Source of the DNA: a virus
Lineage: Duplodnaviria; Heunggongvirae; Uroviricota; Caudoviricetes
Strand: one strand, 5' to 3'
DNA: 64,000 bases
Virus record (IMG/VR): IMGVR_UViG_2913177423_000001
Coordinates: 19,415 to 83,414 of that record
Shown here: in pieces, positions 18,953-59,561 of the stretch
Layout of the letters: each line of letters starts with the position of its first letter
Position numbering within the stretch: the first letter of the stretch is position 1
Translations under genes and position numbers: made by a program
The notes under the pieces: model-generated
What the model was told of the DNA's origin: nothing
What the model saw: the letters and a program-made list of their open reading frames with translations, nothing else
The model's database searches: none

Positions 18953-19687
18953 TTAATCAGCCTCCAGTGGCAATAACGCCTTAGCCATTTCATGAATCAG
19001 CATGGCATCAATGACGCCTAGCGTATGGCCCGGCTTAATCTTTAATGCGGCCTCAAGATAGCCTCTTTCCAGAGTGGTTTTTACGCTTTTCCTGGGCGCT
19101 TGTTGGGGACTATCCGGAAGATCCGGATGGTTGCCAGCCTCATAAGCTACCCGCAACCAGTGCATGAATGTTTCCGCAGACACACAACCACAGTCCACAT
19201 CGATTTTCCCGCGTTGCTGTTCCAGCCATTGCTCAAAATCTAACTTGCAAGCCTTACTTTCAAGTTCATCACCATTGAACTCGACTTTCTGCGACGCTAT
19301 GAGAGCGGCTTCGTACTGTTCGCGAGAGACAACTGACTGGTATTCATCGCTATCAAGGTCACGAATTGGAAGCTCAATCTCACGACAAAAATTCCGCCCA
19401 TAGAACTGGTCTTTTTTGTGGTCTGAGCCAAAAGCAAAAGTCGCGCATGGCGCCATTAAATTGACACTGAGTATGTGACAATAACTCATGCCATCAGGCC
19501 ATCCGCCGCACTTAGGCAACTCCTTCACTAATAAGTCGATCAGCTTCATTGTTTTACCATCTTTGCAAGTCGCCAAAGCCATTTGAGCAAGCGCCAATAC
19601 TTCATCTGCCGTATATCCAGCACCGTGACCATACATTTCTATTCGGGAAATAATCTCTGATATACGCTCTTTATTGATTCTGATCAT
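18953..19687 (-). CDS. hypothetical protein, 244 aa
   Basis: ATGA overlap with the upstream gene at 19684-19687. Confidence 0.65.
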   Translation of the reverse strand: MIRINKERISEIISRIEMYGHGAGYTADEVLALAQMALATCKDGKTMKLIDLLVKELPKCGGWPDGMSYCHILSVNLMAPCATFAFGSDHKKDQFYGRNFCREIELPIRDLDSDEYQSVVSREQYEAALIASQKVEFNGDELESKACKLDFEQWLEQQRGKIDVDCGCVSAETFMHWLRVAYEAGNHPDLPDSPQQAPRKSVKTTLERGYLEAALKIKPGHTLGVIDAMLIHEMAKALLPLEAD

Positions 19688-46307: not shown

Positions 46308-48005
46308 GTGAATAAAAACATTCAGCCAGCTCGTGATCGCGAGCGCGATATTATGAATCGGGCGGCAAGCGTCATGGCTATGACCGTCGATCCGACCACC
46401 GATGCTGCGGGCAATATGATTGCTGATCAGGCAGTGATGATGGAGAACCTGGACAAAGCTATCCAGAAGGAGGCTATGTTTGAAGGCGTAAATCCAGAGG
46501 TTGCACGTCAGATCGCTGGTGGGTGGGCTATGTCTCTGCATGAGTACAAGCGCCAGCATGGTCACTACCCGGCAAGCGACATCCTGGCAAACGCACACAT
46601 GGCACTTGAGCGCCTGATGACTGAATGTGCCAGCGATAAGCATGAAGGTACTGGCAGGGCAATGTTTGAGTCTGTCGCTCAATCGATGCGCAGCTCTGAT
46701 GGTGTAATGAAAGTAGCTCAGTATGCAGCTCTGATTCTGCCTGCATCGCTGGGTGCTGCTACCAGTGATGCCTGTACTTTTGTTCCTTGTGAACGTGACG
46801 AGTCAAATATCTATGAACTGGTCAACGTAGCAGGCACAAAATTCGGCACCTTCAAGCAAGGTGACGAACTGAATATGCAGTCCGCAGGTGTTTATTCTCA
46901 AATGAAACGCCTGTATACCCTTTCCACTAAAGGTGATGGCAGCACCAAAACTTTCCAGTTCGACATCCAAAATTTTGAGGGCCAATCCTGCCCGCTGCGC
47001 GCTGGTTATAACAAACTGCTGATCAACCGCAAACCGTCCAAGGTTGACGACGGCGATGGCAACCTTTATTTCAATGATAAAGACAGCAAAGGCAATGCTT
47101 TCTCCGCCACCGCAAAAGTCGCTTATGACACTGGCGTCATCGACATTACCTTCACTCAAGCGCCAGCAGAAGGGACTGAAATTGCTGTTCAGGTCGAAAT
47201 TAACATCGAGCGCAATCCAAGCCTGATTCCGGTAATCAACCAGGCTATGCGCAAGTATGAAGTTCGCCCATCTCAGTACGTAATTGCTTCCGAACACACA
47301 GTAATGTCCGCTTCCGATTTAAGCCGCGAACACGGCCTTGAATTGGCAGCTCTTCAGTTCTCTGCAATGCGCAACTGGATCTCCCATGAAACCGACATCA
47401 TGCGTCTTCGCACCCTGGTATTCCATACCGTTTATGGTCGTGAATTTGATGTGGCTCTGCCTGAAGCTCAAAACTATGAGTCCTGGGTCGGCCTCCTGCG
47501 CCACGCAGTAAACGCCCTGTCTCAGGAAATGGCAAACCGCACCCTGACCACGGGTATTCGCGGCGGCTTCGCAGGTGGTGACGCAGCTAACTTCCTGCGT
47601 TCTCTGCCTCCACAGCACTTCCAAATCGCGCCGGGCTACGTTCAGTCACCGTATGTGCAGTACATCGGCACCCTGTTTGGCACGATTCGTATTTACGAAG
47701 TGCCGCAGCCTGTATGTGAGCAATTCCAGGCACAGGGATATGACTTAGGTCTGGATGACATTTATTTCTATGGTCGCGGTGAAGGCATCGGTAAAGCCGG
47801 GCTGATCGCTGGTGATGCGGTCCCAGCAATCCCGTATGTGCACGAAACCAATCCATCTCTCGTTAACCGCACCACTCTCTGGGGTAGTGCTATCAACGAA
47901 GTCCACCCGCGCAACGGTGAGAATTATTTCGCCCGCCTGCGTCTGACTCGTGCCAAAGAAGGTGCAATCGACATGCTGACCGGGAAGGTCAACGAAAAAA
48001 AGTAA
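46308..48005 (+). CDS. putative major head protein precursor (P1 gp23-sized)
   Basis: 565-aa late ORF behind a late-promoter-like box, followed by an Ig-like decoration ORF, and ending in a -1 slippery site (a head/tail-structural habit). No direct motif; the start could be the GTG at 46308 or the ATG at 46353. Confidence 0.5.
   Translation: MNKNIQPARDRERDIMNRAASVMAMTVDPTTDAAGNMIADQAVMMENLDKAIQKEAMFEGVNPEVARQIAGGWAMSLHEYKRQHGHYPASDILANAHMALERLMTECASDKHEGTGRAMFESVAQSMRSSDGVMKVAQYAALILPASLGAATSDACTFVPCERDESNIYELVNVAGTKFGTFKQGDELNMQSAGVYSQMKRLYTLSTKGDGSTKTFQFDIQNFEGQSCPLRAGYNKLLINRKPSKVDDGDGNLYFNDKDSKGNAFSATAKVAYDTGVIDITFTQAPAEGTEIAVQVEINIERNPSLIPVINQAMRKYEVRPSQYVIASEHTVMSASDLSREHGLELAALQFSAMRNWISHETDIMRLRTLVFHTVYGREFDVALPEAQNYESWVGLLRHAVNALSQEMANRTLTTGIRGGFAGGDAANFLRSLPPQHFQIAPGYVQSPYVQYIGTLFGTIRIYEVPQPVCEQFQAQGYDLGLDDIYFYGRGEGIGKAGLIAGDAVPAIPYVHETNPSLVNRTTLWGSAINEVHPRNGENYFARLRLTRAKEGAIDMLTGKVNEKK
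47996..48002 (+). promoter_or_regulatory. canonical -1 frameshift heptamer A_AAA_AAG in the zero frame
   Basis: The last sense codons are gaA AAA AAG, then TAA. An SD-like GGAAGG lies 7 nt upstream. The -1 frame is open for 35 codons, to 48109. Confidence 0.5.
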
Positions 48006-48152
48006 TGGTGGCGAACGTGTCGGTATCACCTACGTCAGTTGACGTAAATGAAGGTGAAACTATCGCCGCGAGCACTTCAAAGGCACAGAAAAAAACAAAG
48101 CAGAAGTAAGGCAAAAACACGCCCCTGAATAAGGGGCGTTCAGGAGAAAAGA

Positions 48153-48431
48153 ATGGCAAACATTCAAGTAACTATCACGCCATCTGACGCAACAGACAAA
48201 TCTTTCACTGTTGAGTCCGATCACCCTGAAATTGTCCAGGTTGATGGCACTACATGTACCGCTCTTAAGGCAGGGCAGGCAGTGCTGACAATCAAAACTA
48301 ATGACGGCAATAAAACCGCACAGTGCACGGTCACTGTTAGGGAGGCACCTAAAAGCGTAAGCGCCGTCAGTGTTGAACCGACTACGAAAGAAGTAACCGT
48401 AGGCGACAACTTCACGGTAAGCGAATCCTGA
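48153..48431 (+). CDS. Big_2 (bacterial Ig-like) domain protein, likely decoration
   Basis: ITPSDATDKSFTVESDHPEIVQVDGTTCTALKAGQAVLTIKTNDGNKTAQCTVTV fits Big_2. It ends with the opening strands of a second Ig-like repeat (VSVEPTTKEVTVGDNFTV). Confidence 0.75.
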   Translation: MANIQVTITPSDATDKSFTVESDHPEIVQVDGTTCTALKAGQAVLTIKTNDGNKTAQCTVTVREAPKSVSAVSVEPTTKEVTVGDNFTVSES

Positions 48432-48499
48432 TCAGAGGCTACCCATTAACCGTGGGTAGCCTTGCCTCGTTCTCTCGCTTTAGAGGATAAGAACACAGC

Positions 48500-50155
48500 A
48501 TGAATAAGATTAGTTTTTCGGTAGGGCAGGCAGCTGGCGTTGCTGTAATGGCGGTAAATGCTGACGCTACCCTCACCAATACCAGCGGTGGCGCATCCGT
48601 CTTTGCTGGACTTGTAATATCGCGTCGTGGCGCACCGGGTAAAGTGCTGAAAGTTGACGATACGACTTTTCAAAGCGTATTAGGTTCACCTATTCACCCT
48701 CGCCAGGGATCGGCATTTGAACCATACCGCCACGTGGAACGTGCCGTAAAAGGCGGCTCTGGTTATGTCGTTCGTGTTTGCGCTAAAGACATGAAGGTGC
48801 CGGGTATTTCTGTTTCCGTTGCGGGCAGAGCAAAAGCGGCTAAGGCGAACAAAACACTTACCGTGGAACCTACTGAAACCACAGTAAATCCAGGTGACAC
48901 ATTGAGCGTTGCCGTTGCTTCAACTGCAACAACGAAATCAGTAACCTTCACTCCAAAAGAGACACCCCAGATTGATGATGGGATGGCCGTATTCTTCATC
49001 AAAGATGGTGATGCATCTCAAAACCGCATGTTATCACTAACTCGCGATGATGAAGAAAGCGAACTCTTTACGCTGACGCTGAAAGAAAAACAAACCGATG
49101 GGTCCGTTGAGGTGCTGGAAAGCCACCAGGTGTCCTTCAATCCAGAAGGCACTAACGACATGGGCCAACCAGCATGGATTCCGACACTGCTTGAAAGCCA
49201 GTCCACTCGCATTGGTGCCGTCCTGGCAGATAATGCGGAAGCATCTGCTGCTCAACTCATGTTTGAGGATGTGGCTTTTGAAGGCGGCACTGATGGCGAT
49301 CTGTCCACCATTGACACTGAAGACTATCTGGAAGCATTAAAAGTCCTCGAAGCTTCAGAGGTTAATTACACCGCATTGCTGTCACTGGGCTGCTATGACG
49401 CTTCCGTCTTAGCCGCGCTCAAAAATCTGGCTGAAGACGTTCGCGTAGACATGTTCTACGACCTGAATGGCAATCAGATGCCAGAAAATGCCATTTCAGA
49501 AGCCAAAAGCCATAGTTTTGGTGGCTCACATCAACCAAGTCGTTATTACTTCCCATTCTCCTGTCGAGACACCTTCACTGGTATGAATGTTGTTTACGGC
49601 ATCAGTTGCGACGCATTTGTCGCAAAAGCGAAAGGTGTTGCGCTGGTTTCTGATGTTGGTGGCTGGCACTACGCTCCGGCAGGTGTATCTCGCGCGACGA
49701 TTGATCGACAGAATATTGCCCGAATACCAAATATCGGTGCCGTTGATCGCGAAGCGTTCGTCCTTGCACGCATTAATCCAGTTTCTGTTGCTGCTGATGG
49801 TTCTGTCTACATCGACGACTCTTTAACAACTTTCAGTAAAAACAACTACCTGCGATTCCAGCACGTTTCGTCTCTGATGAATGCTATTGCCCGCAATTTC
49901 TATGAAGTTGCTCAGACAATTAAGCATGAACCTGACGGCATTACCCAAGCGACGCTGATGAAAGCAATGACTGAATTGCTTGATCGATTCTATGCCTCAG
50001 GTGCGCTAGTGACGCCTCGTGACAAGTCTCAAGGCGAAGATCCATATGTTGTCCAGGTTGTCCAAAAAGACATCGACCTGTGGGAAGTATCCTGGTCTGT
50101 CTGCCCAACTGGAACTGCTCGCCGAATTGTCGGCAAACCAATTCTGATGCGCTGA
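48500..50155 (+). CDS. contractile tail sheath protein
   Basis: 551 aa. The N-terminal region (...VISRRGAPGKVLKVDDTTFQSVLG) and overall size are sheath-like; contains an inserted Ig-like stretch (LTVEPTETTVNPGDTLSVAV). Confidence 0.65.
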   Translation: MNKISFSVGQAAGVAVMAVNADATLTNTSGGASVFAGLVISRRGAPGKVLKVDDTTFQSVLGSPIHPRQGSAFEPYRHVERAVKGGSGYVVRVCAKDMKVPGISVSVAGRAKAAKANKTLTVEPTETTVNPGDTLSVAVASTATTKSVTFTPKETPQIDDGMAVFFIKDGDASQNRMLSLTRDDEESELFTLTLKEKQTDGSVEVLESHQVSFNPEGTNDMGQPAWIPTLLESQSTRIGAVLADNAEASAAQLMFEDVAFEGGTDGDLSTIDTEDYLEALKVLEASEVNYTALLSLGCYDASVLAALKNLAEDVRVDMFYDLNGNQMPENAISEAKSHSFGGSHQPSRYYFPFSCRDTFTGMNVVYGISCDAFVAKAKGVALVSDVGGWHYAPAGVSRATIDRQNIARIPNIGAVDREAFVLARINPVSVAADGSVYIDDSLTTFSKNNYLRFQHVSSLMNAIARNFYEVAQTIKHEPDGITQATLMKAMTELLDRFYASGALVTPRDKSQGEDPYVVQVVQKDIDLWEVSWSVCPTGTARRIVGKPILMR

Positions 50156-50196: not shown

Positions 50197-50931
50197 ATGA
50201 AAAATTATACTGCTGATCCTTTTATGCGTGCGATTTTTGGTTCTGGCTGCTTTGAAAGCGGTGATAAATCCACGCTGGGAAATGATGATAAAGCCATGCT
50301 GGAAAGCGCCGAACAGAAAGGAACTAACACTCAAGCAAAGCCAAAAGAAGATATTGAAACCGCGATGATGGAAGCGGTTGAGTCTCGCGCACAAGGAGAT
50401 ATGCGCAGCCTGGCGGCTTCCATGCTTGCTGGCTGGATTGAGGATGGCGATCCGGAAGCTGACTCATTTGATGCGTTAGCAATCACTATGGCTGGCCTGG
50501 CTGATATCGATGAAGACACCGATTTTACCGATGAACAAGTCGATGCTTATAACGATGCTCTTGCAGCCCTTGCAGATGCTGCTGTTGCGCTTGGCGCAGA
50601 CCAGGACGACGTAACCGAGATGATCGACGATGAAGATGACTCTGCTGCCGAACGTGTATATGACGCGCTTTCCGAAAGCGACGCCGACATGATGGAAGCG
50701 GCTATTGCCATTTACACCGTTGCTGGTGGTGACAGCGCAATGCTGGAAGCGGTACGTAAAAAAGTGGTCCGTGATGGCAAGGTTACCATTATCCGTAAGC
50801 GCCCGCGCCCTCGCCGCATGACATCATTGCAAAAACAGGCGCTGAAAAAAGCACGCCGCAAAGCGCACACATCCGTAGCAAATATCAACCGCAAAAAATC
50901 AATGCGCATTCGCAAAAAACGCGGTTTGTAA
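50197..50931 (+). CDS. very acidic protein with a strongly basic C-terminal tail (scaffold/internal-protein-like)
   Basis: ATG at 50197 follows GGGGAGAGAGG. The Asp/Glu/Ala-rich body ends in IRKRPRPRRMTSLQKQALKKARRKAH...RIRKKRGL. Confidence 0.6.
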   Translation: MKNYTADPFMRAIFGSGCFESGDKSTLGNDDKAMLESAEQKGTNTQAKPKEDIETAMMEAVESRAQGDMRSLAASMLAGWIEDGDPEADSFDALAITMAGLADIDEDTDFTDEQVDAYNDALAALADAAVALGADQDDVTEMIDDEDDSAAERVYDALSESDADMMEAAIAIYTVAGGDSAMLEAVRKKVVRDGKVTIIRKRPRPRRMTSLQKQALKKARRKAHTSVANINRKKSMRIRKKRGL

Positions 50932-55871: not shown

Positions 55872-58800
55872 TTGATCGCCGCTGGCAAAAGAGAGGTTAT
55901 TTTGAAAGAGAATAAAGACCGCATCGCAATAATTGACGCTATTCAGGGGGCGAGCACAAACGAACTCAAGGCTCTTGCTGAGATCAAAGACGCCATTCTC
56001 TCTGGTAGAGGGTCTATAACTCAACTTAATGAAAGGCAGGGTAAAGTTAGTCAAAGACTATCCCGTAGACGCATAGCAAGCGAACCCGATGCCTCTGATG
56101 ATGCCAAGAATACCCAGGCCAACCCATATATAAAGCGCCTTCCGATGAAAAAAGGGAGGACACAGGTCAACAACGGAGAAAAACGACTCATTGTTGCAAC
56201 CAACACATCAGAGCGCGTTCATTTTGCGTCATCACGCCAGTCCGCCCAAAAGTTGAAAGGTTCTGTACCAGTAGCCGCCAATTCTGCCCCTCTTGAACCA
56301 CAATCCCCCCAAAGCCAAAAAGGACCGCTTCGGGATAGTAATGGACGCTTTGTATCCCAGAAAAACAACGAGGATATAGCCAGAAAAAAAGAATGGCAGA
56401 ACGCACGTAAGGCCGACGCCAAACTACAAGAAGGCTTCCTCCGGAAATTAGGCTCCATTATGGGGGTAGATGGCAATCGGTCTTCCAGTGAAGAGTCCTT
56501 AACAGATGCCGCAGGTGTCGGCGCTGGTGGCCCGTTGTGGATGGCTGCTCGCGGCATGTACGACATTACTAAAGAGATCACAGGTAAAGCAGAATCTCTT
56601 AAAGAATGGGTAGAAAAGGGGAAAGGTGAGGCTTCAGCTTCAAAAGTGACATCGCCAGCAATCACTTATCCGGCAGCGGTGAATGCTCAAAAAGCAACAT
56701 CCGCAAAAGCGTTTAATAATGCTGTTGAGACAAAATCCACACAGGCAGTAGAAGAGCAAACAAAAATCCTTCAGACCAATGACAACAAAATAATTGATGG
56801 TCTGGAAAATGTCTCTGACGAAGTAGTTAAACTCCGCAAATCGGTGTCTTCTGGGAATAAGTTCGGCTTAAGTGATCTCTGGAGAAATCGACAAGGCGGA
56901 AGAAATAAAATCAATTTTGGCGATCAGACAAGTAAAAACAAAAGGCGTAAATCGAAAAGGAAAGGTCGCAATCTGGGGAAAAAAGCCCTTTCCGTTGGTG
57001 AAAAAGCCGCTGCCGGAACCGCTGCCGCTGGAGCTGGTGCCGGAGCTGCAAAGACTGTTAAAACAAAGGTTAGTAAAGCCAAAGACATCAGCACCACTAG
57101 CGACGTATCTAAGGGTATTGGTAAAGAGGCAAAAAACACTGCAAAGGCAGTTAAGCCAGTAGGTGTAGTTGCCGAAGAGGCCACAATTAAAACAGGTGAA
57201 ACTGTTGCAAAGAAAAAAACCGAATCCGTAGCCCTCAAAAGTGCTGCAAAAATAGGCGTTAAATCAGCTGCATCTACAGCTGCAAGAGCTATCCCGATCA
57301 TCGGATCGCTGGCTATGGCGGGATATGACGCAATAGATGGTTACACTGATACAGATGCGCAAAAGGCAGCCTTTGGCTTAAGTGATGATGATGCAGTATC
57401 CACACAGCAAAAATCCGCTTACGCAACAGCTAATGTGCTTGATATGGGCGGCTTAGTGTCGGGCGCAACCAACCTGATAGGCAAAGGGATTTCTGCGTTA
57501 GGCTTCGAAAGGGCAGGTGAAAAACTTCAGAATTTTGATACCGGAGATATTGCTCGTGGTGTTAATGGCGCAGTAGATATCACTAAATCTGCTTTTGGAA
57601 GCCTTAAGGATAAATTTTTATCCACTGATGAAAACACGAAGCAAGTAAAAAAAGCGGTTGAGGATGGCACCAAGAAGACTGTCGATGCGATTCATTCTTT
57701 AGGTGAGCAGCTACAAGGCGGGCGTGATGGTGAAGATGGTGTTGGTGAGCACGGGTATACTTCCCCGGCTGAATTTAATGCCCCTACCAGCAACACCATT
57801 GCAGCGGATCTGAATATTGGTGGCAGCAACGCTAAAAACCGCAATTACCGGAATAATAATCTCGGCAACCTTGTTTTCGCTAATCAGGAAGGGGCGACGC
57901 TGGAAGCGCCAAATGCAAAAGGTGAGCAACGTTTTGCGCGATTTAACACGCCTGAAGAAGGGATCAGGGCGCTGGCAAACCAGGTGTCAAGCTATTACAA
58001 CGGCACCAGTGCCGCAGCGGGACACCAGAAGTTACAGACGGTATCAAGCATCATTTCCAAATGGGCGCCGCCAAATGAGAACAATACCAATCAATATATT
58101 GATAACGTCAGTAAATATCTTGGCGTCTCGCCTAATGAAAAAATAGATGTCAGCAACCCAGAGGTTATGACGCAATTAGTTCGTGCAATAGCAACGAAAG
58201 AAGGCGGAAACCCGGCGGTTAACAATGAGTTCATAAAGAATGCTCTTGGGACATTCAACGCAAATACTGGTCGTTGGGAAGGGCGTTTCTCCGATGAAAC
58301 ATTGGCGCGACTTAATAAAATTCAGAAAGAGAATGGCGGTCAGCTAATTGCTCGTGATTCGCAATATAGCGTTGGTCGCAAGGTGAAATATGCTGATGGA
58401 ACATCTCCGGCAAAATCTGTATTGAATGCAGTTCCAACAGCAACACCTAAGCCAATTGAAGTTGCACAACATGCCCAGGCAGCCAAAAAGCCACTAAAAC
58501 CAGGCAACCAACCACAACCGATTAATCCAGAGAACGCTGATGTTAATACCGGCACGCCATCAAGTTTGCCTGAGCGGTTAATCGCCATAAATGAAAGCGG
58601 AATTAGTGGCGTAACTAATTTGTTTGGCGGCGCGGCTACCAGCCTTGCTGGAACACACCTGGACTTGGTGAAGGATTTTGCGTCGGCTACTTCATTAGGT
58701 TCTGTATCTTCGCTTTCCGAAAAAGCGAAGGGAATGGACCAGGCTCTGACTGAAAAAATATCCGGATTAACAGGCAAACCTTTTGGATTCAAAAAAGCCT

Positions 58801-59561
58801 CCCAGGTAGCTGATATCAGAGAGGCTATACAAAAAAGGCCAACCCATGAACGCGATATATCTTCAGTCGATCTTCTCGCTGGCGCGTCACAGCCAACAGA
58901 GAATAAAAAAACACCTGTAAACCCAAAAGGGATTCCGGTCTATGACAATGGCTACAAGGTAATAGACGGCGAAGATAAGGGATTTCTTGGCTCTTTGTTT
59001 GATTCGTCATTAACAGGCATGAAGCGCATTGGTTCGGCTGTATTACCTGCAATTGGTGACAACGTTTCACAACTTGTAGGCGGCATCGATGGCACTGGCA
59101 TATTGAATGATTTTGTCTATCAGGCTACAGGGCAGAATTCAACAATCGCCAGGGCGATTAGCCCACTTACAAGAAGTGCTGGTGGTTGGCTAAATAATGG
59201 CATTCAACAAACCGCTGATAGCATCAGGGGAATATCAACTGAGGCAAATAATGCCATATTTGGCTCTGCGTCAGCCGTGCAGGAACCTTTTCTTGCTATG
59301 CCGCCACAGCTTCCCACTGTAACCGATCTTGCTCGAAGCGGAATAAGGCAACCATTAACTACTGACACTGCAAATAACGATCCTGCTATGTTGAAGGCAT
59401 TGGATAACGTCTGTTCTATCCTGAACGACCTTCTGAATGTGAGCAAAAATAATACGAAAGGCGATCCGGATAAGGTTGTCAAAACATCGCAGCCACAGCC
59501 GCGACCACGTGCGAGCACAACCATTAATGACCCGTCGCTGGATGCTCTGCTTGAGGATTAA
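55872..59561 (+). CDS. tape-measure / injection protein (P1 Sit-like), 1229 aa
   Basis: Very long Ala/Lys/Gly-rich ORF with an internal globular module (NLGNLVFANQEGATLEAPNAKGEQRFARFNTPEEGIRALANQV...ISKWAPPNENNT). TTGA coupling to the upstream alternative frame. Confidence 0.75.
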   Translation: MIAAGKREVILKENKDRIAIIDAIQGASTNELKALAEIKDAILSGRGSITQLNERQGKVSQRLSRRRIASEPDASDDAKNTQANPYIKRLPMKKGRTQVNNGEKRLIVATNTSERVHFASSRQSAQKLKGSVPVAANSAPLEPQSPQSQKGPLRDSNGRFVSQKNNEDIARKKEWQNARKADAKLQEGFLRKLGSIMGVDGNRSSSEESLTDAAGVGAGGPLWMAARGMYDITKEITGKAESLKEWVEKGKGEASASKVTSPAITYPAAVNAQKATSAKAFNNAVETKSTQAVEEQTKILQTNDNKIIDGLENVSDEVVKLRKSVSSGNKFGLSDLWRNRQGGRNKINFGDQTSKNKRRKSKRKGRNLGKKALSVGEKAAAGTAAAGAGAGAAKTVKTKVSKAKDISTTSDVSKGIGKEAKNTAKAVKPVGVVAEEATIKTGETVAKKKTESVALKSAAKIGVKSAASTAARAIPIIGSLAMAGYDAIDGYTDTDAQKAAFGLSDDDAVSTQQKSAYATANVLDMGGLVSGATNLIGKGISALGFERAGEKLQNFDTGDIARGVNGAVDITKSAFGSLKDKFLSTDENTKQVKKAVEDGTKKTVDAIHSLGEQLQGGRDGEDGVGEHGYTSPAEFNAPTSNTIAADLNIGGSNAKNRNYRNNNLGNLVFANQEGATLEAPNAKGEQRFARFNTPEEGIRALANQVSSYYNGTSAAAGHQKLQTVSSIISKWAPPNENNTNQYIDNVSKYLGVSPNEKIDVSNPEVMTQLVRAIATKEGGNPAVNNEFIKNALGTFNANTGRWEGRFSDETLARLNKIQKENGGQLIARDSQYSVGRKVKYADGTSPAKSVLNAVPTATPKPIEVAQHAQAAKKPLKPGNQPQPINPENADVNTGTPSSLPERLIAINESGISGVTNLFGGAATSLAGTHLDLVKDFASATSLGSVSSLSEKAKGMDQALTEKISGLTGKPFGFKKASQVADIREAIQKRPTHERDISSVDLLAGASQPTENKKTPVNPKGIPVYDNGYKVIDGEDKGFLGSLFDSSLTGMKRIGSAVLPAIGDNVSQLVGGIDGTGILNDFVYQATGQNSTIARAISPLTRSAGGWLNNGIQQTADSIRGISTEANNAIFGSASAVQEPFLAMPPQLPTVTDLARSGIRQPLTTDTANNDPAMLKALDNVCSILNDLLNVSKNNTKGDPDKVVKTSQPQPRPRASTTINDPSLDALLED

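Follow-up and report, generated by a model that had tools for sequence, protein, structure and literature searches.

The question raised by the locus described here is why the major capsid gene of a phage-plasmid ends on a slippery sequence that leads into the first strands of an immunoglobulin (Ig)-like domain, with the remainder of such a domain opening the next gene. The locus lies in a stretch of 64,000 nucleotides (nt), hereafter the window (positions 19,415 to 83,414 of IMG/VR record IMGVR_UViG_2913177423_000001), and comprises the capsid gene, an open reading frame (ORF) of 92 amino acids (aa) and the tail sheath gene. It is 91.6% identical to the corresponding locus of Escherichia phage D6, a P1-related plasmid prophage, and the same stretch recurs at 90-98% identity in more than 100 plasmids of E. 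coli, Salmonella and Shigella. The window is a D6-like (P1-related) phage-plasmid. The capsid protein matches phrog_1014 end to end and shares 97.5% aa identity with the D6 major capsid protein and 43.8% with P1 gp23. A previous sequence-only reading of the window had proposed that a -1 frameshift appends half of a Big_2 domain to the capsid protein, and had offered a decayed fusion, a two-piece complementation on the capsid or a more exotic recoding event as explanations of the split. Programmed -1 frameshifting at the end of the capsid gene probably takes place, and two-piece complementation is, from the sequence comparisons, the best reading of the split domain. The features of the locus are listed in Table 1.

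Table 1. Features of the capsid-to-sheath region, in window positions
Feature	Position	Strand	Remarks
Major capsid protein gene, 565 aa in the 0 frame, ending ...MLTGKVNEKK*	46308-48005	+	Homolog of P1 gp23, D6 orf51
Slippery heptamer A_AAA_AAG, 0 phase; 0-frame stop directly 3' (48003-48005)	47996-48002	+	Capsid ORF end GAA AAA AAG TAA
-1 extension, first 24 codons, VMVANVSVSPTSVDVNEGETIAAS; Big_2 strands A/A' and start of B	48002-48073	+	'Donor' piece
34-codon ORF	from ATG 48005	+	D6 RefSeq name orf50
Candidate frameshift-stimulating stem-loop, 5 nt 3' of the heptamer	48008-48069	+	RNAalifold consensus
Basic extension tail TSKAQKKTKQK and stop TAA (48107-48109); holds A7 run 48089-48095	48074-48109	+	
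Hairpin H1, ACGCCCCU-GAAUA-AGGGGCGU, GC-rich	48119-48139	+	Ancestral hairpin between the capsid gene and the next gene
Shine-Dalgarno AGGAG of the 92-aa ORF, 6 nt before ATG 48153	48142-48146	+	
92-aa ORF	48153-48431	+	D6 orf49, annotated 'structural protein with Ig domain'
92-aa protein, residues 1-62; Big_2 strands B-G, without A/A'	48153-48338	+	'Acceptor'; Pfam Big_2 profile 22-79
92-aa protein, residues 63-92; linker REAPK, second A-B piece SVSAVSVEPTTKEVTVGDNFTVSES and stop	48339-48431	+	
Hairpin H2, GGCUACCCA...UGGGUAGCC, before the sheath ribosome binding site	48437-48461	+	
Tail sheath gene	48500-50155	+	Homolog of P1 gp22; followed by gp21, PmgG and tail tube
Core of sheath-gene insertion, KTLTVEPTETTVNPGDTLSVAVASTATTKSVTFTPKET; third Big_2 A-B(-C)-like piece	48851-48964	+	Insertion relative to P1, JK004 and Pantoea

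The capsid ORF does end, as had been claimed, on an in-phase A_AAA_AAG, and the -1 frame entered at 48002 reads VMVANVSVSPTSVDVNEGETIAASTSKAQKKTKQK*, i.e. an extension of 35 codons. The landmarks that had been placed between or at the two halves of the domain, namely the run of seven A (A7), the hairpin, the ribosome binding site (AGGAG) and the ATG of the 92-aa ORF, were all found on reading the sequence. Across the loci compared, the -1 frame is closed at 3-27 codons before the heptamer, with no start codon in that stretch. A shifted ribosome would produce the junction ...NEKK/VMVANVS..., for which a Glu-C junction peptide KKVMVANVSVSPTSVDVNE and a trans-frame peptide VMVANVSVSPTSVDVNEGETIAASTSK, preceded by K, are predicted.

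It had further been suggested that this frame encodes the opening strands of a Big_2 domain whose remainder starts the next ORF, and that this ORF in turn ends with the opening strands of another repeat. Both suggestions hold. On the 92-aa protein, Pfam Big_2 (PF02368) scores 32.9 bits against a cut-off of 22.8, covering only profile positions 22-79. Residues 1-66 alone score 34.7 bits; with the first 24 residues of the extension spliced in front, the match runs over positions 2-79 of 79 and reaches 42.4 bits. The C-terminal 25 residues of the 92-aa protein are a further A-B segment. For complete Big_2 coverage, the extension, or else the sheath piece described below, has to be joined artificially to the 92-aa protein; no single polypeptide reaches it. 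The spliced domain aligns unbroken to 7quz, a Big_2 domain of solved structure, leaving two residues over at the joint, and intact tandem Big_2 proteins of unrelated phages show the uninterrupted form ...VTGVSVSPASLSMEIGESKALSVTVSPSDATDKTYTVTSD...; because of these alignments, the break is placed in or next to strand B and not in a loop. In every lineage, the capsid extension and the C-terminus of the Ig protein end at the same point of the domain, and the position of the stop is fixed. The core of an AlphaFold model of the 92-aa protein superposes on the Ig domain of lambda gpV over 61 columns, with a root-mean-square deviation of 2.6-3.1.

In total, 28 D6-type loci were collected, falling in four clades. 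The heptamer is identical and in phase in all of them, with AACGAAAAAAAG kept, and the 0-frame stop varies between TAA, TGA and TAG. The extension has 35 codons and a fixed stop in 27 of the 28 loci, and indels begin right after this stop. In one locus, L016 (IMG/VR UViG_2531839449_000024), the equivalent of 48089-48095 consists of six A (A6) instead of A7 and the tail becomes ...KAQKKQSRSKAKTRP* (41 aa); the shorter run may reflect natural variation of the homopolymer or an error in sequencing.

With the trans-frame protein as query, a contig of Klebsiella michiganensis (L052) was found, which in turn gave access to two Enterobacter plasmids, both complete, and a contig from a metagenome (L055, L056 and L076). 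The Ig proteins of these Klebsiella and Enterobacter elements are 44-46% identical to that of the window, and their capsid tails are 13-15 codons longer (...INEPEQTTPGDEGEAKKSE and ...INSSASNPGETTDEEEKKSE). Nevertheless A_AAA_AAG is in phase in both, within GCA AAA AAG TCC GAG TAA in Klebsiella and GAA AAA AAG TCG GAG TAA in Enterobacter (L055, L056), so that the 0-frame stop lies two codons further 3' than in the window. The -1 frame, closed 3-4 codons upstream of the heptamer, reads VRVTGVIAEPAENVEVSVGEKLATTTKPKATRAKRKETPQ in Klebsiella and VGVTGVSVSSDGQELSEGDSFAIE in Enterobacter; across the three lineages its length is 24-40 codons, and the basic tail of the D6-type and Klebsiella extensions has no counterpart in Enterobacter. 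The extension is followed by a CCCC/GGGG hairpin, a ribosome binding site (RBS) and an ORF of 92-93 aa with the same layout of B-G and A-B pieces. Splices of extension and Ig protein are full-length here too, going from 28.8 to 31.3 bits in one lineage and from 27.1 to 27.9 bits in the other.

Each lineage's extension is similar to Big_2 A-B segments, with z of 4.8-11 (6.8-9.2 for the piece in the window) and none of 2000 shuffles reaching the score, and the other two frames of the region contain stops and lack comparable Big_2 similarity in the permutation test. Moreover, the in-phase heptamer is present in seven of seven capsid relatives with an Ig ORF versus none of the six capsid ends for which no Ig ORF was found (the downstream gene is in view for four of these six and is the sheath gene in each). 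Nothing but a GC-rich hairpin and an RBS separates the capsid gene from the sheath gene in P1, Cronobacter phage JK004 and the Pantoea plasmid pEuc3; hence, within this phage group, the Ig block is confined to a single branch. When plasmids, phages, IMG/VR, GTDB genomes and metagenomes were scanned, only the three split lineages were retrieved next to a D6-type capsid gene. Thus heptamer, -1 half-domain, hairpin, RBS and offset Ig ORF recur together in three deep lineages, which supports the core of the sequence-only reading.

Two features go beyond that reading: a candidate stimulatory stem-loop and a third A-B-like piece in the sheath gene. The outer helix of the stem-loop pairs GUGGCGA (48008-48014) with UCGCCGC (48063-48069), and the inner one pairs 48022-48030 with 48053-48061. 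Its minimum free energy is -26.4 kcal/mol, with a z of -2.85 against shuffled controls in the window, -2.3 in D6 and -3.1 in L006. Over nine distinct sequences, 93% of the cells can pair, compared to at most 58% in slid registers. The arms form islands of invariant nucleotides, 5 of the 32 paired columns being variable versus 18 of the 46 unpaired ones (p = 0.04). These invariant arms account for the suppression of synonymous change (dS) in the extension: estimated by the Nei-Gojobori method among the D6-type clades, it amounts to 0.25-0.43, whereas the capsid end has about 1.0 and the Ig ORF 1.1-1.7 (binomial p of about 0.01), while non-synonymous change (dN) is 0.11-0.175, similar to the 0.08-0.2 of the Ig ORF. 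No Rfam family matches the site. The Shine-Dalgarno (SD)-like GGAAGG, which had been pointed out 7 nt upstream of the heptamer, is indeed found there in the window, but its counterparts are GGCAAGG in D6, GGGCAGA and GGGCAAA in other clades and none in Enterobacter, and it was rejected as a stimulator as it is not conserved.

On the minus strand (47989-48159), a 56-aa hydrophobic ORF spans the extension and H1. Most lineages keep it uninterrupted, while in L023 it contains a stop and in some clades a clear start is missing. As a cause of the synonymous suppression it was rejected, since it shares the third codon positions and the codon pattern (9, 4 and 14 variable columns at the first, second and third positions of the extension) fits the sense frame better; in all probability the antisense ORF merely accompanies that frame as a by-product.

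Shifting is also known to be favoured where, as in the window, a slippery run is immediately followed by a stop codon, as reportedly described by Weiss et al. in 1987. The site resembles the -1 frameshift site of E. coli dnaX, where the stem-loop begins 6 nt downstream of the heptamer, in having the same heptamer in phase, an enterobacterial host and a 3' stem-loop, here a candidate one at 5 nt. It differs in that no SD is conserved and the shift would take place on the last two codons beside the stop, lengthening the product by 35 residues, whereas that of dnaX is truncated. According to Sharma et al. (2014, PMC4066793), A_AAA_AAG is among the most efficient heptamers in E. coli, and suppressed synonymous variation beside such a site is the mark of a stimulator. 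At the level of sequence, three things are established: the signal, the conservation of a coding -1 frame and the complementarity of the domain pieces. Most likely, ribosomes slip on the capsid site, so that a minority of the capsid proteins gains roughly a quarter of an Ig-like domain.

The sheath gene of D6-type and Klebsiella elements carries an insertion that is shorter in Enterobacter and absent in P1, JK004 and Pantoea; it occurs only in lineages with the Ig ORF and is the most variable stretch of the sheath. Compared with Big_2 A-B segments, it reaches z of 6.1-7.6 in D6-type and 4.5-13.5 in Klebsiella elements, with weaker values in Enterobacter and about 1 for P1 and Pantoea. Spliced to the 92-aa protein, the sheath piece yields a Big_2 match over positions 4-79 with 42.0 bits. 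As the sheath insertion adds a third one, elements with the Ig ORF possess three A-B donor-like pieces and one B-G acceptor.

From these pieces we propose the following course of events, which as a whole (a donor appended by frameshifting and completed in trans by the 92-aa protein) we regard as reasonably probable. A fraction of the ribosomes would slip by -1 on the heptamer, helped by the adjacent 0-frame stop and by the stem-loop, and would then read the 35 codons of the extension, giving a minor capsid protein MCP-KK-VMVANVSVSPTSVDVNEGETIAAS-TSKAQKKTKQK (MCP, major capsid protein). The appended strands A/A' and start of B would be unable to fold alone. The 92-aa protein would be made separately from its own RBS, offering strands B-G as acceptor and, behind them, its own A-B piece as donor. 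By beta-strand complementation, the capsid donor would then complete the acceptor fold of one 92-aa molecule, which would thereby be anchored non-covalently, and the free donor end of the docked molecule could recruit a further copy. The insertion in the sheath could act as a second docking site, and since the sheath carries this equivalent piece, the 92-aa protein may also decorate the tail. Assembly of the pieces in trans, to which their complementary boundaries point, is put forward tentatively, at a confidence slightly below even. The fullest form of the proposal, in which split-Ig docking takes place on the capsid (with the number of donors set by frameshifting) as well as on the sheath and 92-aa copies are added head to tail into non-covalent Ig chains, is possible but rather doubtful.

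Several points weigh against the frameshift or the assembly. The bare heptamer is common: AAAAAAG occurs 33 times in the window against 20.7 expected, a number reached by one in 100 shuffles (further copies lie e.g. at 50758, 50845 and 56148-58837), so on its own it proves nothing. Its invariance among the D6-type clades is weak evidence alone, the chance being about 0.13-0.34 given the conserved Glu-Lys-Lys. It is because of its context and the comparison across lineages that the heptamer carries significance. The stem-loop is not predicted in L002 (z of -0.2) and its covariation is nearly nil, with 12 of 16 pairs invariant and one pair varying between GU, GC and AU. The hairpins at the Klebsiella and Enterobacter sites have spacers of 9-10 nt and weak z of -1.8 to -1.9, and no upstream SD is conserved in the clades and lineages compared. 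In the sole Klebsiella copy, the capsid gene lacks its N-terminal part; this element may be defective, although its junction features are intact. For D6-type phages, no trans-frame peptide, reporter assay or virion proteome was found in the literature searched. With respect to assembly, Pfam gives no match for any extension alone, the gains of the Klebsiella and Enterobacter chimeras are small, and donor and acceptor overlap by a few residues in strand B. Models lend trans assembly no support: the predicted local distance difference test score is 64.5 for the 92-aa protein and 41 for the joined single-sequence model, which is unusable. Finally, that the C-terminus of this capsid faces outwards is something we infer.

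Another possibility might be that the frameshift is real but the extension acts alone, as a short surface tail or beta-hairpin, perhaps via its basic end, with the 92-aa protein being an independent Ig-like decoration or adhesion protein. The complementary boundaries would then be no more than a legacy of a tandem Big_2 array, one piece of which was inherited out of register, and residues 2-90 of the 92-aa protein do match such arrays contiguously, as one offset array unit. The overlap in strand B and the lack of structural support from models fit this explanation as well. So do the short disordered C-terminal tails of capsid relatives without Ig genes: these relatives (L003 3720-3794; P0016 and P0017) carry in-frame low-complexity tails of 15-45 residues, e.g. 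KKIEGETAPEAAATGTGTGS*, which suggests that the capsid C-terminus tolerates extensions and is probably exposed. (A likeness of the extension itself to the in-frame tail of P0016 was considered and rejected, as BLAST gives no match.) However, an extension acting alone leaves unexplained why its Big_2 A-B likeness is kept in three lineages, why it ends at the same point as the C-terminus of the Ig protein, why heptamer and extension occur only alongside the Ig ORF and why an A-B-like sheath piece is restricted to the same lineages; and Enterobacter does without the basic tail. We therefore consider it unlikely.

The same extended capsid protein could also be made mainly by RNA polymerase slippage on the seven A of the slippery run. 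Such runs are prone to slippage, a transcript with eight A would encode exactly ...NEKKVMVAN..., and L016 shows a length change in the other A7 run. In Klebsiella, however, the slippery run has only six A, yet A_AAA_AAG is still exactly in phase, which favours ribosomal over polymerase slippage as the main route. The phase is conserved, though it is irrelevant to polymerase slippage, and both the structure 5 nt downstream and the suppressed synonymous change fit a ribosomal stimulator. Efficient transcriptional slippage in E. coli needs runs of about nine or more. This route is thus hardly probable as the main one.

A decayed fusion, as suggested in the sequence-only reading, would mean that an Ig gene was broken by an intergenic insertion and truncation, that the heptamer is a chance Lys-Lys pair and that the -1 frame is neither expressed nor selected. 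The frequency of the heptamer in the genome and the non-significance, taken alone, of its invariance among the D6-type clades are compatible with this, and the hairpin and RBS between the halves do resemble the ancestral capsid-sheath intergenic region. Yet the same arrangement is found in three lineages with saturated synonymous sites, and 27 of the 28 D6-type loci lack frame-breaking indels or stops. The extension is 84-88% identical across clades, like the constrained capsid end, compared to 65-70% for the relaxed spacer before the sheath gene, and dN/dS is 0.03-0.09 for residues 1-62 of the 92-aa protein and 0.05-0.19 for its C-terminal half-Ig. Comparison of orthologous loci did not retrieve an intact, fused domain: among close homologs of the Ig protein in 5.8 billion proteins there is none, all being 88-95 aa long and covering only the 92-aa part (an exhaustive phmmer search with the 92-aa protein was swamped by giant tandem Big_2 proteins), and none was found with trans-frame queries or in plasmids, phages, IMG/VR, GTDB genomes and metagenomes. 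From the missing intact version, the low dN/dS and the fixed stop it follows that, as far as such comparisons can tell, all pieces are under purifying selection and the split arrangement is old and kept by selection, not a product of decay. The decayed remnant is accordingly very improbable.

In the D6 RefSeq record NC_050154 (L001 3198-3302), the extension is annotated as an independent 34-aa hypothetical protein, orf50, with no frameshift marked; in the feature tables of the D6-like plasmids examined, no gene is listed over the extension and no frameshift is marked either. Besides this annotation, an independent gene translated by termination-reinitiation at TAATG or TGATG without any frameshift could appeal to the overlap of its ATG with the capsid stop in the window and D6 clades and to a GTG kept 3 nt after the stop in the other D6-type clades. 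But the ATG is replaced by GCA in two of the four D6-type clades, the Enterobacter extension contains no ATG, GTG or TTG at all and the single candidate start in that of Klebsiella is a GTG halfway through the half-domain. No SD precedes the ORF, neither of the two codons that separate the heptamer from the ATG or GTG has become a stop, and the alignment of all lineages begins at the heptamer and not at a start codon. The check for conservation of this ORF as a gene of its own, which had been named as a way to refute the frameshift, thus turns out in favour of the frameshift, and an independent gene is scarcely credible. The more exotic recoding event, in which the halves would be joined by another recoding at the A7 run, by readthrough of the stop codon or by bypassing, was rejected, given that stops are present in all three frames before the ATG of the Ig ORF, the A7 run is interrupted in other clades, take-off and landing codons do not match and the Ig ORF keeps its own conserved RBS and ATG.

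With regard to the other features of the region, hairpin H1 is conserved, with one compensatory change from a C-G to an A-U pair. Between the capsid and sheath genes, its counterpart is CGCCCC...GGGGCG in P1 and JK004, whereas Pantoea has another GC hairpin there. It was rejected as a frameshift signal or plus-strand terminator, as it lies 117 nt downstream, lacks a plus-strand T-run and is homologous to the P1/JK004 hairpin. Read on the minus strand (48108-48139), H1 together with the GTTTTTGCC behind it is scored as an intrinsic terminator; other clades have lost the T-run (GGCAAAAAC in plus-strand letters). Across the P1/D6 group, a GC-rich hairpin without T-run and an RBS are found between the capsid and sheath genes (L005 4727-4745 in P1, L004 4720-4738 in JK004 and L003 3795-3822 in Pantoea). 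This intergenic hairpin may have a role in mRNA processing, stability or attenuation; the P1 record lists no terminator, regulatory or RNA feature at this position.

The GGAG of the 92-aa ORF is kept in the D6-type and Enterobacter lineages, and Klebsiella has AAGGAAAT at that position. In L006 (2989-3000), from one of the D6-type clades, the Ig protein could be longer if translated from an in-frame ATG located four codons further upstream (MEEKMADIQ...), in the RBS region. In the Sdys, L006 and Klebsiella lineages, multiple compensatory changes have preserved the stem of H2. In the K. michiganensis contig (L052 3975-4552; ABHTOV040000060.1), the capsid gene is reduced to its last 183 codons, and a divergent gene upstream stops 26 nt short of it. 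Among the genes around the window's locus, Pfam and PHROG scans revealed no chaperone, usher or pilin families, only phage structural families and families of unknown function.

Several known systems can be compared with this locus. In phages T7 and T3 (10A/10B), a -1 frameshift occurs near the end of the major capsid gene. The two cases share a minor variant of the major capsid protein, lengthened at its C-terminus through a -1 shift, here a predicted one, at the 3' end of the gene; the slippery site is another one, and in T7 the extension is unrelated to Ig folds and lacks a partner gene. In chaperone-usher pili, donor-strand complementation and exchange complete an incomplete Ig-like fold. 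The proposed assembly would resemble them in that an incomplete Ig fold is completed by another chain and that acceptor and donor follow head to tail, but this is a functional analogy only: the missing elements here are the N-terminal A/A' and not strand G, there is no chaperone or usher, and there is no sequence relationship.

The closest class is that of the Ig-like domains appended to phage structural proteins by programmed frameshifts, as described by Fraser et al. (2006) in the form in which PMC6316719 and PMC8718954 cite them, minus the whole-domain feature. An example is SPP1 gp17.1*, in which the frameshift adds a whole FN3 domain of 87 aa. Common to this class and the present locus is a frameshift, here a predicted one, at the 3' end of a major structural gene that leads to a sub-stoichiometric variant with Ig-fold sequence. 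Whereas the known cases add a whole domain, only strands A-B (24 aa, with or without the basic tail) would be added here, the remainder being supplied in trans by the next gene. The small Ig-fold capsid decoration proteins T4 Hoc, T5 pb10 and N4 gp17, which are thought to serve adhesion and not stability (PMC7602432), have complete Ig domains and a dedicated capsid-binding domain, and none is reported to be anchored by a split domain. A single literature search aimed at donor-strand anchoring of phage capsid decoration proteins yielded no example, and none is described in the decoration-protein review PMC7602432.

At the level of annotation, the finding implies that D6 orf50 is probably a frameshift extension of the capsid protein and not a gene, a feature left unannotated in more than 100 plasmids. 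Frameshift products with whole Ig domains are textbook knowledge, unlike a conserved frameshift that yields only the opening strands and leaves the rest to the following gene. Should assembly in trans take place, decoration proteins would be attached in a new way, with recoding setting the number of docking sites on the capsid. Such assembly would also be a phage counterpart of donor-strand assembly in pili and, as a natural split-domain tag, could be engineered for phage display. D6-type elements are frequent among gut and clinical isolates, a setting in which Ig-like decoration has been tied to adhesion.

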